Positions 6,703 through 53,701 of a stretch of 64,000 nt of DNA are shown here, one piece after another. The notes below the pieces were generated by a model. That model saw only the letters and a list, made by a program, of their open reading frames with translations, was not told the origin of the DNA and ran no database searches. Source of the stretch: an uncultured Prochlorococcus sp. (GTDB lineage: Bacteria; Cyanobacteriota; Cyanobacteriia; PCC-6307; Cyanobiaceae); the NCBI RefSeq assembly GCF_902622435.1, contig NZ_CACNQB010000003.1; one strand, given 5' to 3'. The position numbers and the translations under genes are program-made. Every line of letters begins with the position of its first letter. Positions within the stretch are counted from its first letter, which is position 1.

Positions 6703-7809
6703 ATGCTCAAAGTAAATAGAAGTGATTTTTTAATAAAGCCATTTTTAAAAAGAAGTAATATGAGAGCTTCTTATCAAATTATTTCTACCATTTTCCCAAT
6801 AATTTCTATTTGGTTAATCGTCCACCAAATAATAAATCAACCTCTTTCATTATTGATTAAAGGATTTCTATTGGTACCTTTTATAGTCCTTCTAACTCTC
6901 TTATCTTCTCGTACATTCTCATTAATGCATGATTGCGGTCATAATTCTCTTTTTGCAAAACGAAAATTAAATCGTTTTTTTGGATTTTTACTTGGCTTGG
7001 TTAATGGTATACCCCAGAAGTCATGGTCAATTGATCATGCTTTTCATCATAGAAACAATGGAAATTGGGAAATTTACAAAGGGCCTATTGATGTTTTAAG
7101 TCTTGAAGATTATCAATCCCTTACAAAAAGAGATCAAATATTTTATAAAGTAAGTCGAAACTGGATGATGCTTTTCCCTGGCGGTTTTTTTTACTTAGTT
7201 TTAAAACCTAGATTAGGACTAGTTATTATTATTTTTAATTTCATTAAAGATATATTGGAAGAGACATTTATCAAAATAAAAAACAGAGATATTTCTCAAC
7301 TATTAGCTATTAATTCAAGATTCAAACCACCTTTTTCTGATTATGGAGATAATTTTAGTGAACTATGTGAATTAATAATCAACAACATAGTAGTAATAAT
7401 AGGGTGGATTTTTATGTGTAAATGGTTGGGGTTAGTTTTTTTCGTATCATTTTATTCCATTGTATTAACCTTATCAGCAGCAATTTTAATATGTGTTTTT
7501 TTCGTACAACATAACTACGAAAATGCATATGCTAAAAATACAAAAAATTGGGATCTCATCGATGGAGCTATTTTAGGGAGTAGCAATTTAGATATTCCTA
7601 ATTGGCTAAATTGGTTTTTAGCAGACATATCCTTCCACAGTATTCACCATCTCTCTGAGAGAATACCAAATTACAACTTAAGAGCTTGTCATAAAGCAAA
7701 CATTCATTTACTCCAACAATCAAAGTTCTTAAAATTAAGAGAATTTTCAAACTGTTTTAAATATATTATTTGGGATAATAAAAATGAAAAATTAATTCCT
7801 ATCAGTTAA
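6703..7809 (+). CDS. Membrane fatty acid desaturase
   Basis: Three His boxes: HDCGH, HAFHH, HSIHH. Confidence 0.92.
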   Translation: MLKVNRSDFLIKPFLKRSNMRASYQIISTIFPIISIWLIVHQIINQPLSLLIKGFLLVPFIVLLTLLSSRTFSLMHDCGHNSLFAKRKLNRFFGFLLGLVNGIPQKSWSIDHAFHHRNNGNWEIYKGPIDVLSLEDYQSLTKRDQIFYKVSRNWMMLFPGGFFYLVLKPRLGLVIIIFNFIKDILEETFIKIKNRDISQLLAINSRFKPPFSDYGDNFSELCELIINNIVVIIGWIFMCKWLGLVFFVSFYSIVLTLSAAILICVFFVQHNYENAYAKNTKNWDLIDGAILGSSNLDIPNWLNWFLADISFHSIHHLSERIPNYNLRACHKANIHLLQQSKFLKLREFSNCFKYIIWDNKNEKLIPIS

Positions 7810-7812
7810 TAC

Positions 7813-7965
7813 CTAATTCAACCTTCTTCTCAATTTTCTTTTTAGAGGAATACTGCTATAGGAATGAGTACCAATAGATGGAGGTAAGTCATTCTTTAAA
7901 GGATGCATAAAAGCATTTGCCATACTCTCTAACATTTTAGAAAGCCAATTAATTACTGATTTCAT
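7813..7965 (-). CDS. 50-aa hypothetical protein
   Basis: MKSVINWLSKMLESMANAFMHPLKNDLPPSIGTHSYSSIPLKRKLRRRLN. Confidence 0.65.
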   Translation of the reverse strand: MKSVINWLSKMLESMANAFMHPLKNDLPPSIGTHSYSSIPLKRKLRRRLN

Positions 7966-8253
7966 TTGAAAATTTAAAAGTGTACTTTTTTATCTTCTAA
8001 CTAAATTACTGAGAAGTAAATCAGTCTTTATGCTGATTTTTTTTGGAAGATTACCTTATAAATTAATATTAAATAATCAAAATCATTGTTTACTTTTTGT
8101 TTTAAAAGAAGGATATTACTATCTTTTTCAAGATAAACCAGTTGCAAAAAAAATTTAGTAAATAATACTTATTTCTTCTAATTAGCTTAATAAATTAAAT
8201 TATTGAGCATAATTTCATGCTATATCTCTATTTCAAATAAATCTAACAATATT

Positions 8254-13276: not shown

Positions 13277-13375
13277 ATAGCATTTAGGAAGTGCTTAGCT
13301 GGTTAAATCGGTAATCTGAATTAACTAGTTCGTCATGAGCTTGCCTGTGGGATACTTGCAGGCTCTTTCAATTTT
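13277..13375 (+). ncRNA. Candidate ~95-nt sRNA with three hairpins
   Basis: TAAAAT -10 box at 13267; stems AGCATTT/AAGTGCT, AGCTGGTTAA/TTAACTAGTT and GAGCTTGC/GCAGGCTC followed by T-rich sequence. Confidence 0.55.
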
Positions 13376-19156: not shown

Positions 19157-19256
19157 TGCAGCTCCTTAACTTGCTCAAGTCCCCGTCCTATGGCTTGAGT
19201 CGTACTGCGGTCTATCAGATGGTAGATCGGACGATTTTGTAGTATTCACTACAATC
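19157..19256. ncRNA. Candidate structured RNA (~100 nt)
   Basis: About 47% GC by hand count, within AT-rich flanks; stems GCAG/CTGC, CTCAAG/CTTGAG, TCTATC/GGTAGA, TTGTAGT/ACTACAA. Confidence 0.5.
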
Positions 19257-27495: not shown

Positions 27496-27666
27496 AGAAA
27501 CAAATTTAAAAGATCAGCTTTTTTTGATATGTCTGATGACCTTTTCTATCGAATATCATTAATAGGATTTTTAGTTGTTTTTAGCTCAATGGTATTTTTC
27601 CTAACGAAATATAGAGAAAAAAAAGTTAATAATATAAGCCAGATTTCCATAACTGAACAAATTTAA
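27493..27666 (+). CDS. 57-aa single-TM microprotein
   Basis: MRNKFKRSAFFDMSDDLFYRISLIGFLVVFSSMVFFLTKYREKKVNNISQISITEQI. Confidence 0.6.
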   Translation: MRNKFKRSAFFDMSDDLFYRISLIGFLVVFSSMVFFLTKYREKKVNNISQISITEQI

Positions 27667-27680
27667 TTTATAAAGCAGTA

Positions 27681-28037
27681 ATGCAAAGATTTATAATTTC
27701 ACCGTTATTTGCTTTATCTAGGTTTTTTATAAATATTTACGGAATATTTTTAAAGTTTTTTCTTCAATTAAATGGTGGTTATTGGTCAAGAATTGGTTTA
27801 GCCGAAAATATTACAGAGGAAAGAATTAAAAAAAGAAGATTTTATATCCTGCCTTTTTATATTCTTCTAGCTTTATTGTTTGGATTACTATCTGCTCTAT
27901 ATTGGTATTTTGTTATTCTTCATGTGCCACTTTCAATAGAAAGATATTTAAGTCCATTGAATAACAATATTGCTTTAATAATTGCTTTTGCTACTTTCTT
28001 TGGTTGGCTTTATATTCTTTGTAAAACAAACAAATAA
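27681..28037 (+). CDS. Hypothetical membrane protein
   Basis: 118 aa with two or three hydrophobic segments. Confidence 0.75.
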   Translation: MQRFIISPLFALSRFFINIYGIFLKFFLQLNGGYWSRIGLAENITEERIKKRRFYILPFYILLALLFGLLSALYWYFVILHVPLSIERYLSPLNNNIALIIAFATFFGWLYILCKTNK

Positions 28038-28139
28038 AATGCTTACTGAGAGATGATGTGGTCCGCGGATTAAAGATTTAATTAATCATGATTAAATCAT
28101 TCTTAAGGATTCATGCAAAATATTTATGACCGATTAATT

Positions 28140-28452
28140 TGTATTTACGACAGTTCTGGTGATCGACTCGACCAAGGTTGACCAACTAGATCTTCACTAA
28201 TCCATGGTCTGCAACACCAAGGTAAATTAACTTATCTAACCTTTACGGTAAGAAAGTTAAGTGATCAGAAATTAATCTTTCGGGATTAATTCTGAACTAT
28301 CTTAAAAATAAAGTCGTTTGTAAAGCATGAAGAAGTGAGTAATCACTTTTACATTCAAAACTAATTTCTAAGAAAATTCTTAATCTGATTATTAAATAGA
28401 TCTCCTTTCTGTCGTCACCATTTAAAAAAGACCTGTAAAAGGGTCTTTTTTT
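28140..28452 (+). ncRNA. Candidate ~300-nt structured RNA
   Basis: GC-rich 5' part; hairpins at 28228-28259, 28266-28294 (UUCG loop) and 28333-28348 (GUAA loop); CTCCTTT at 28402; terminator; no ORF over 25 aa seen. Confidence 0.55.
28424..28452. terminator. Bidirectional intrinsic terminator
   Basis: AAAAAAGACCT-GTAAAA-GGGTCTTTTTTT. Confidence 0.85.
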
Positions 28453-28503
28453 ATGTCTTAAATTTTATTTATTTACTGTTAATCCACAAATAATTAAATA
28501 TTT

Positions 28504-28635
28504 TTATCTCGCTCTTTCGCGATCAGTTAATGCTTTTTCAAAAGTAAAAAAGAAAGTACAAATGCTATTCAATGCAACCAACAAAAGAACTACTGATCTT
28601 CCATGTTGATTTAATTGAAGTGATCTTTGAGTCAT
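28504..28635 (-). CDS. 43-aa single-TM microprotein
   Basis: Starts 4 nt after the previous stop; MTQRSLQLNQHGRSVVLLLVALNSICTFFFTFEKALTDRERAR. Confidence 0.6.
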   Translation of the reverse strand: MTQRSLQLNQHGRSVVLLLVALNSICTFFFTFEKALTDRERAR

Positions 28636-28639
28636 ACTT

Positions 28640-28822
28640 TTAATAATCTTCATTGTAATCGGATGGACTACCAGTTAAAGAACAAACAACTGATTCCTCT
28701 TTTTTCATTTCTTTTATTTCCATTATTGGTCTGCCCATTTTCTTAAGAACATCTATATCTTCTTTAGTCTGACAGCGTGCAATTATATTTCCTTTTTGAT
28801 CAAAGCAACTGTAGTAAGTCAT
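28640..28822 (-). CDS. 60-aa hypothetical protein
   Basis: ORF track; MTYYSCFDQKG...VVCSLTGSPSDYNEDY. Confidence 0.8.
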   Translation of the reverse strand: MTYYSCFDQKGNIIARCQTKEDIDVLKKMGRPIMEIKEMKKEESVVCSLTGSPSDYNEDY

Positions 28823-28846
28823 TTTATTAAATGCAATTTAACGTTC

Positions 28847-28892
28847 ATGGTTGATTTCAGTTGCAGCAACGCAACCGACTCATGACAACCAT
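28847..28892 (-). promoter_or_regulatory. Structured 5' leader candidate
   Basis: Outer stem ATGGTTG/CAACCAT enclosing inner stem TCGGTTGC/GCAACTGA, 25 nt upstream of the ATG at 28822. Confidence 0.5.
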
Positions 28893-29049
28893 ATTTCTAA
28901 TTTAGGTCAGCCATAGATTTAAATGGCTAAAAAAACATACCTCTTTCCGTACCTAAATGTTCCTCAAACCGCACACATTAGATACGCAGTGTTTTAGTCA
29001 AATCAATTAGAAAAAAGAGGTAGTTAAACGAATATACAAAGGAGAATTT

Positions 29050-29187
29050 ATGAGTGGAGATTTTGAGACTCTTGAAATTAATCAACCAAAAATTAAATAT
29101 TTAAAACCAGAAGATAATACAAAATGGTTAGACAAATTAATTAATAATATTAAGGACATGAAGAGGAAGATATCAAAAGATTCTTAG
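29050..29187 (+). CDS. 45-aa microprotein (NNTxWLDxLIN family)
   Basis: GGAG SD; MSGDFETLEINQPKIKYLKPEDNTKWLDKLINNIKDMKRKISKDS. Confidence 0.7.
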   Translation: MSGDFETLEINQPKIKYLKPEDNTKWLDKLINNIKDMKRKISKDS

Positions 29188-29321
29188 AAATTTAAGAAAG
29201 AAACATTTTTATTTGACCTTTAGTTTGAATGAAAAGAAATTCAAAAAAGAATTTAAATTTTGTATTTAAGGTAACCGCTTTTTTGTGAGCATTATTCAGA
29301 ATAAGAGTCCGACTATTTTTT

Positions 29322-29465
29322 ATGCAAAAAAATTTAGATGAAAATTCTTATGAAAAAAGAATTGAAAATATAGAAAAAGGAAAATCTTATTTAAAAAGTA
29401 ATGGATTTTTCAAATCAAAATCTAATCTTTTCGAAGACATACAAAGATTTATCTATAAAAGGTAA
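29322..29465 (+). CDS. 47-aa hypothetical protein
   Basis: MQKNLDENSYEKRIENIEKGKSYLKSNGFFKSKSNLFEDIQRFIYKR. Confidence 0.5.
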   Translation: MQKNLDENSYEKRIENIEKGKSYLKSNGFFKSKSNLFEDIQRFIYKR

Positions 29466-53582: not shown

Positions 53583-53645
53583 ATTCACGCTTGGACATCC
53601 TTTCTTTTAAGAATGGGTCTGATATATTCAGACCTACGCGATTAG
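53583..53645 (-). ncRNA. ATPC-type cis-regulatory RNA between subunit a and c genes
   Basis: Perfect GGTCTGA/TCAGACC stem plus CATTC/GGATG and CGC/GCG stems; this position is where the ATPC RNA motif is described in Prochlorococcus. Confidence 0.75.
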
Positions 53646-53701
53646 ATATTTTGCCAGATTACAGACTCTTTGTAAAAGCGTCTGAATGTATTAGAAGACG
53701 G

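Follow-up and report, generated by a model that had tools for sequence, protein, structure and literature searches.

Protein regulators are very few in Prochlorococcus, which is believed to depend heavily on small RNAs; almost all of those known were first defined in MED4 and a small number of other early genomes. In Firmicutes, small RNAs of the RNAIII and RsaE type mask Shine-Dalgarno sequences with a C/U-rich seed; in Prochlorococcus, few strong Shine-Dalgarno sites are in use. The RNAs closest in kind to the element described here are the island-associated, clade-specific Yfr RNAs of MED4 (PMC2518516, PMC7368042). Among them, Yfr8 and Yfr9 form an overlapping pair of 290 nt in island 1, with a 44-aa frame, and have homologs in MIT9301, MIT9515, MIT9312, AS9601, and MIT9215 (PMC2518516). 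Among the non-coding RNAs of marine Synechococcus and low-light Prochlorococcus, Yfr103 (290-328 nt) is the most abundant; it has a conserved imperfect palindrome at −29 to −58 from its start site; its function is not known, and a role as a protein-binding or scaffold RNA has been proposed (PMC5069720). The published list of strains with Yfr103 homologs includes no high-light clade (PMC5069720).

The DNA analyzed here, referred to as the window, is a stretch of 64,000 nucleotides whose source is a high-light Prochlorococcus genome of 30% G+C. An earlier note on this DNA had proposed that positions 28140-28452, lying in a gene-free gap, encode a large structured non-coding RNA. The gap is borne out by the ends of the flanking ORFs at 28037 (+) and 28504 (−), between which there is no ORF of 30 aa or more. 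BLAST comparison with relatives delimited a conserved block, at ~28062-28460, that starts 5′ of the stretch proposed. With moderate confidence, based on sequence comparison, we regard the part at ~28100-28458 as an independent plus-strand gene for an undescribed non-coding RNA of ~310 nt. The features of the locus are as follows.

28055..28106, plus strand: left edge of the conserved block, with the 3′-end remnant of a small gene (...DDVVRGLKI-stop) and a palindrome.
28073-28106: the 34-bp imperfect palindrome, AT-rich, with its center CATG at 28089/90, found as a self-match.
28113..28121, plus strand: ATGCAAAAT, putative −35 region of the promoter, each position kept in 32-37 of 37 diverse homologs, the divergent group included.
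28135..28140, plus strand: putative −10 box TAATTT (pattern TAnTTT), from homolog conservation.
28147, plus strand: putative transcription start, A in 34 of 37 homologs, at a drop in variability.
28147..28225, plus strand: G+C-rich 5′ domain, the least variable part of the RNA, with helices in predicted folds.
28157-28161 with 28215-28219, plus strand: UGGUG/CACCA helix of the 5′ domain, in predicted folds.
28168-28181, plus strand: UCGAC-CAAG-GUUGA hairpin of the 5′ domain, in predicted folds.
28188-28192 with 28206-28210, plus strand: AGAUC/GGUCU helix of the 5′ domain, in predicted folds.
28228..28259, plus strand: imperfect hairpin UUAACUU...AAGUUAA, in the minimum-energy and centroid folds.
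28266..28297, plus strand: long hairpin with a UUCG cap, 12 pairs, 96.7% of cells paired.
28318..28351, plus strand: hairpin GUAAA...GUGA-GUAA-UCAC...UUUAC, with near-invariant stems and a variable loop.
28376..28420, plus strand: conserved 3′ module UCUUAAUCUGAUUAUUAAAUAGAUCUCCUUUCUGUCGUCACC, with CUCCUUU at 28402-28408, the proposed pairing (seed) region, kept in short relatives.
28424..28458, plus strand: intrinsic terminator, stem GACC.../...GGUC followed by a U run, detected by scan and showing compensatory changes.

The individual motifs were found where the earlier note had placed them: TGGTG at 28157-28161 and CACCA at 28215-28219, CTCCTTT at 28402-28408, and a terminator on the plus strand at 28424-28451. 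The hairpin claimed for 28228-28259 is present in the minimum-energy fold, and the two capped stems, AUUAAUCU-UUCG-GGAUUAAU (8 bp, 28272-28291) and AAGUGA-GUAA-UCACUU (~28328-28343), are both there. The 5′ domain is G+C-rich as described, with 46.8% G+C at 28147-28225 vs. 30.1% for the whole window, which places it in the top 1.4% of 79-nt windows. The two tetraloops do read as UUCG and GUAA solely on the plus strand, but both loops vary among homologs. Of the overall proposal, a large plus-strand non-coding RNA, the parts that stood are a discrete cassette, the lack of a conserved ORF, a −10-like box, a sharp start boundary, and the terminator, whereas its structure fared less well, as detailed below.

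The suggestion that the RNA belongs to a described Rfam or Yfr family was not upheld. In a search of Rfam 15 that covered Cyano-1, Cyano-2 (RF01702), which we take to be Yfr103, the Yfr families, wcaG, manA, 6S, tmRNA, and RNase P, no family reached its gathering score at the locus. The weak matches obtained between 27950 and 28600 at E ≤ 10 scored 25.4 bits or less, compared to gathering scores of 45-70, and came from unrelated sRNA, snoRNA, and lncRNA families; the best-scoring of them fell on the terminator region. Over the whole window, the only matches at gathering score were Yfr20 at 13278-13364 (+), a glutamine-II riboswitch at 19174-19236 (−), and ATPC at 53586-53676 (−). ARAGORN detected no tRNA or tmRNA, and a text search of the open-access literature found neither a paper describing an RNA of this block nor a published transcriptome of a strain that carries it.

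Yfr103 was considered and rejected as the identity of the element. The RF01702 model matched one Synechococcus-type genus among 64 genera and gave no match in the source genome or in two other same-genus genomes of that sample; it finds Synechococcus copies only, and one copy compared by eye showed no similarity. The element is like Yfr103 in its length, its upstream imperfect palindrome, and its lack of a known function, but Yfr103 is usually multi-copy and the element is single-copy and confined to one genus. The palindromes also differ in position, −74 to −41 from the putative start here vs. −58 to −29 in Yfr103, and the one found here belongs to an upstream gene remnant, occurs without the RNA, and is absent from divergent homologs.

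Yfr8/9 resemble the element in length and in lying in an island, and they too are highly conserved in sequence over their full extent; the folding z-score reported for them (~−4.6; PMC2518516) is similar to that obtained here, −4.2. They were nevertheless rejected by their published distribution, since none of the strains with their homologs came up in the motif scan described below, and by their 44-aa frame; the element is without an ORF of 30 aa or more on either strand. The likeness to the island Yfr RNAs in general is that of a free-standing unit with its own terminator, lying in a hypervariable island among hli and micro-gene neighbors and present in part of the genus only. Yfr20, one of the MED4-type Yfr set, lies within the same 64-kb window. 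Unlike the Yfr families in Rfam, to which it has no match, the element, at ~310 nt, is longer than most, and a motif scan did not return it from the classical high-light genomes that define the Yfr RNAs. With RNAIII and RsaE-type RNAs it shares a CUCCUUU, predicted to be unpaired, just 5′ of the terminator, in the most widely conserved part of the family; the candidate RNA is, however, several times longer than typical members.

The 5′ end of the putative RNA is marked by a change in variability. Across 116 unique homologs, positions 28125-28146 are hypervariable, and variability drops abruptly at 28147. In 37 diverse homologs, T28135 and A28136 of the −10 box are each kept in 36 and T28138-28140 in 30-35, position 28137 being free (A in 20, T in 7, C in 5, G in 2); the six bases that follow the box, 28141-28146, are the most variable of the block. 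We infer that TAnTTT is a −10 box, the variable 6-nt spacer a discriminator, and the conserved A28147 the +1 base. The sequence ATGCAA, 16 nt upstream of the −10 box, agrees with TTGACA at 3 of 6 positions and would act as a −35 element, with no consensus hit; the sigma-70 consensus scan missed the putative promoter, whose consensus match is weak. From this promoter of its own, the element would be transcribed into an RNA reaching from about A28147 to the terminator at 28424-28458.

The terminator (28424-28451, plus strand) is the sole terminator-like site in 27600-29000, where 0.4 would be expected by chance. Its hairpin, 11 pairs long, leads into a T run. Two of the stem pairs show compensatory changes (C-G to U-A in three sequences and A-U to U-A in one), a further pair is split 15:14 between U-G and C-G, and the loop is hypervariable. 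An A run lies 5′ of the stem, so that the terminator could also stop convergent minus-strand genes.

The 313-nt stretch folds with −75.2 kcal/mol (z −4.2), an energy that none of 100 shuffles reached. Folding energy alone cannot pick the strand, since the complement folds equally well (z −4.5). The plus strand was chosen because the body of the element lies upstream of the terminator in the plus direction only, because the consensus fold reaches −28.7 kcal/mol on the plus strand vs. −11.6 on the minus strand, and because a number of conserved pairs take the G-U form when read on the plus strand.

The block is single-copy in the source genome. BLAST, run on 285 species-level genomes of the genus, found it in 136, with identities of 75-100%. 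A covariance model built from the 3′ 138 nt found essentially the same set (139 of 285), and in none of the 63 other genera of the family was there a match to it. Named hosts in public records are the HLII strains MIT9107, MIT9201, SB, SS51, and MIT9314, along with many single-cell genomes; MED4, MIT9515, MIT9312, AS9601, MIT9301, and MIT9215 are absent from the 98 species-representative genomes in which the motif scan found the 3′ motif. A phage-borne element was considered and rejected: blastn returned no match to the block in phage genomes, and two conserved motifs of the block had no match in IMG/VR viral contigs.

At several loci (L019, L058, L059, L062-L070, and L074b), both flanks are unrelated to those in the window (~30% identity), and the RNA is still 77-92% identical. 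In many genomes, the left flank diverges outward from ~28050. The neighbors across genomes are changing micro-genes, including hli genes, and such changing neighborhoods are typical of Prochlorococcus islands. As judged from the alignments, the block is shown to be a discrete unit kept in at least four unrelated neighborhoods; it would be a cassette residing in hypervariable genomic islands of some high-light lineages (HLII-type, with some deeper ones).

These changes of neighborhood bear on the reading of the element as a cis-acting leader, a riboswitch, or the 3′ UTR of a neighboring gene. Long structured stretches that end in a terminator are found in attenuators, and the downstream 49-aa and 60-aa ORFs are linked to the element in many genomes. 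Both neighbors nevertheless change between genomes while the element stays, the ORFs that come after the terminator (28504-28653 and 28640-28822) are on the opposite strand, the next non-overlapped plus-strand ORF starts only at 29050, and no riboswitch family matches. We consider a cis-acting role highly improbable.

Several observations were made on the surroundings of the element. Locus L074 (G146:C5) holds two copies in opposite orientation ~5.3 kb apart, at 2001-2401 (−) and 7691-8082 (+); they are 93% and 89% identical to the window, and the second has entirely different flanks. The ORFs of 49, 60, 45, and 47 aa at 28504-28822 (−) and 29050-29465 (+) move together as a block, which in L063 and L065 lies upstream of the RNA, not downstream. 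The 49-, 60-, and 45-aa ORFs, the three scanned, had no Pfam match.

The left edge of the block (28055-28106) behaves differently from the rest. In L225 and L226, these 50 bases are the genuine 3′ end of an intact gene of 64-92 aa together with the DNA downstream of it; a TPR-repeat gene comes next. The left edge is replaced in L066-L070, the most divergent homologs. As it sits behind another gene in the former and is replaced in the latter, it is probably outside the control region of the RNA gene itself. The comparison makes it a recombination scar, not necessarily an operator, and the conserved part specific to the RNA begins near 28100. A shared island promoter box or regulon operator was rejected as the identity of the palindrome, which is unique in the source genome and lies behind another gene elsewhere.

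A hidden small protein was also rejected. A 22-aa ORF at 28113-28181 and the minus-strand frames are shifted by indels; homologs differ by indels of 1, 2, 4, and 16 nt, their longest stop-free frames are not the same, and there is no open frame common to them. In L058 (G273:C12, ~1198-1628), the 16-nt unit GTCGTTTGTAAAGCAT, which is single in the window at 28313-28328, stands three times in tandem within the RNA; the extra length, not divisible by three, is evidently tolerated.

As to whether selection conserves the element, the evidence is mixed. At loci with homologous flanks, the RNA (identity 0.90-0.97) is about as conserved as the third codon positions and intergenic DNA of the neighbors, so that recent sharing of island DNA may explain much of the conservation; the whole island segment is young or was recently exchanged. 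Core genes of the same genomes have diverged far more (ruvA region 72-89%, ppx region 71-97%), and the element is often better conserved than they are. It is 93% identical in genome G031, vs. 72-81% for the ruvA and ppx regions, and 88% identical in G300, vs. 73%. Several distant lineages keep the element at 81-93%, above the identity of their coding DNA.

The same data must be weighed against the possibility that the block is non-functional island DNA, the decayed remnant of one or more genes, kept by recent sharing, with a terminator maintained for convergent minus-strand genes. The agreement in identity with neighboring silent sites and intergenic DNA where flanks are common speaks for this explanation. 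The left edge is demonstrably a gene remnant, an A run lies 5′ of the terminator, a minus-strand gene comes next in most contexts, and the G+C-rich domain has a minus-strand frame free of stops for 28 codons. Recent sharing accounts less well for 77-92% identity in many unrelated contexts and in lineages whose core genes are at 71-81%; there is no conserved frame; and in L062 and L066 the downstream gene is not convergent. Two further points, the fate of the stems and the non-uniform variability, fall on opposite sides and are taken up with the fold. All in all, we consider it unlikely that the block is non-functional.

The fold is plausible but not established. RNAalifold retains the UUCG hairpin, the GUAA hairpin, a small 5′ hairpin, some long-range pairs, and the terminator. 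The GUAA hairpin has almost invariant stems, with GAAGAAGUG invariant, and four loop bases that vary: homologs have GCAA and GAAA, and also UUAA, GUUA, and AUAA. The UUCG loop is sometimes UCCG, and its loop-closing pair, which is U-G in 16, U-A in 13, and C-G in 3 sequences, is the best single covarying pair. In the hairpin at 28228-28259, only the basal stem is general, the apical part being different in most homologs (GGU to GGA).

Quantitative tests gave little covariation. In 33 diverse sequences, 97.2% of cells were paired, vs. 96.8% in shuffles. Changes on both sides were found in 4 of 59 pairs, two of them in the terminator, a number reached by 40 of 500 shuffles. The covariation score was 0.070, vs. 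0.060 in shuffles, with sequences too similar for a decisive test. Variants break pairs of helices H1-H4 at about the rate expected without selection, and in the 116 unique sequences breaking variants are about as frequent as preserving ones in the UCGAC/GUUGA and AGAUC/GGUCU helices. Two helices that are complementary in the window were rejected on the same grounds, each being broken about as often as kept: a 5′-3′ closing helix, ACGACAG/CUGUCGU, and the TGGTG/CACCA helix. Variability, in contrast, was 0.034 at paired and 0.066 at unpaired positions, a difference reached by none of 302 circular shifts (Spearman rho −0.25, p = 7e-6). Thus, of the claim that the element is structured, what stands is that paired positions vary half as much; few pairs covary, and several stems are broken about as often as kept.

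Stems broken about as often as kept, and the scarcity of covarying pairs, speak for non-functional DNA. The non-uniform distribution of variability argues the other way, with its boundary at 28147, its fixed stems and variable loops, and a paired-unpaired gap beyond that of circular shifts.

A transcribed RNA could also work through its fold, as a protein-binding or scaffold RNA like that proposed for Yfr103, and not through pairing with mRNAs. A length of ~310 nt is unusual for a pairing sRNA and near that of Yfr103 (PMC5069720), the predicted RNA has a G+C-rich domain and a number of stable hairpins capped by tetraloop-type loops, and high conservation with little covariation fits protein or ligand contacts. 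The high-light clades, for which no Yfr103 homologs are listed (PMC5069720), are where the element occurs. Against this, there is no Cyano-2/Yfr103 similarity; the element is single-copy, accessory, and located in an island, and half of the close relatives lack it, which is not what one expects of a central housekeeping RNA; and the short relatives described next keep only the 3′ module, which suggests a linear pairing motif. Action through the fold appears distinctly unlikely to us.

Returning to the reading that we prefer, a trans-acting non-coding RNA, the part that recurs most widely is its 3′ end. Four loci (L071, L072, L073, and L206) share with the element only UCUUAAUCUGAUUAUCAAAUAGAUCUCCUU..CUGUC.UCAC and the terminator. 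These short relatives (L071 1942-2100, L072 1977-2112, L073 1983-2088, and L206 501-600) keep only AAUCUGAUUAUCAAAUAGAUCUCCUU and the terminator, and one of them is ~100 nt long. Their sequences suggest a wider RNA family with one common seed and different 5′ parts. The mean pairing probability of CUCCUUU is 0.30, i.e., it is predicted to be mostly unpaired. In sRNAs, pairing usually resides in the piece that divergent family members have in common, and GAUCUCCUUU resembles the 3′ end of 16S rRNA.

We propose that the RNA would act in trans by base-pairing. Its working part would be the conserved, mostly unpaired, CU-rich 3′ module (...AUAGAUCUCCUUUCUGUC...), which would imitate the anti-Shine-Dalgarno end of 16S rRNA and cover ribosome-binding sites with a strong GGAG. 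A scaffold function, or further pairing sites, would then fall to the stable 5′ hairpins and the G+C-rich 5′ domain. Among 1486 start regions of the source genome, the best predicted partners of the 3′ module are ribosome-binding sites of the GGAAAGGAGAUUUAU type in front of a metA-like and a CYTH-like gene (z −4.3 to −4.4), and the L23 gene, these genes being named by eye from their N-termini. As single-genome extremes of a noisy score, these predicted targets are leads only.

The 5′ domain contains two long antisense matches. Positions 28183-28204 are complementary to codons 4-10 of the ruvA mRNA at 21 of 22 positions plus one G-U pair (BLAST E 0.003), and among 1486 start regions that of ruvA forms the most stable predicted duplex with the 5′ domain (−48.8 kcal/mol, compared to a mean of −17.1 with sd 4.9). 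Positions 28213-28230 are an 18/18 complement of the ppx/gppA mRNA. Pfam confirms the identities of ruvA and ppx, and only 1 of 400 dinucleotide shuffles yields two matches as strong. On these grounds, the element could be a trans antisense RNA made of captured core-gene fragments, whose 5′ domain would pair with the ruvA start and the ppx/gppA mRNA and thereby tune recombination repair and polyphosphate/(p)ppGpp metabolism.

Comparison across genomes did not support ruvA and ppx as conserved targets, and they were rejected as such. The ruvA match falls to 12-18 of 22 in 29 other genomes, and with G-U pairs counted it averages 17.6 of 22 in carriers of the RNA vs. 18.0 in non-carriers. There is no co-variation with the ppx site, which is far from the ends of the coding region and falls on a conserved protein motif, and similarity to ruvA past the 22-nt core is not significant. 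We give this antisense role little credence and treat the two matches as a lead, whether they are captured gene fragments, lineage-specific targeting, or chance. The ruvA gene itself, at C8:31020-31050 outside the window, apparently starts at a TTG right after the upstream stop (TAATTG), and its first ten codons are highly variable between genomes of the genus.

The two ends of the RNA can be combined in one speculative picture, to which we assign an equally low probability: a patchwork island regulator in which a 5′ domain of inverted snippets from ruvA (codons 4-10) and a ppx/gppA motif would be joined to an older, widely shared anti-Shine-Dalgarno 3′ module. If that were true, a mobile cassette could silence recombination-repair and polyphosphate/alarmone genes in any host that receives it, with a strength set by the alleles of that host.

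Should the RNA prove not to be expressed, the locus would be an example of how recently shared island DNA can mimic a conserved structured RNA. If it is expressed, its conserved 3′ module would provide a defined handle for target finding, and the 116 sequence variants gathered here would support comparative target prediction. The element is present in about half of the sampled high-light lineages, which are dominant in the surface ocean. It could thus be a widespread, overlooked regulator that moves with island cassettes.
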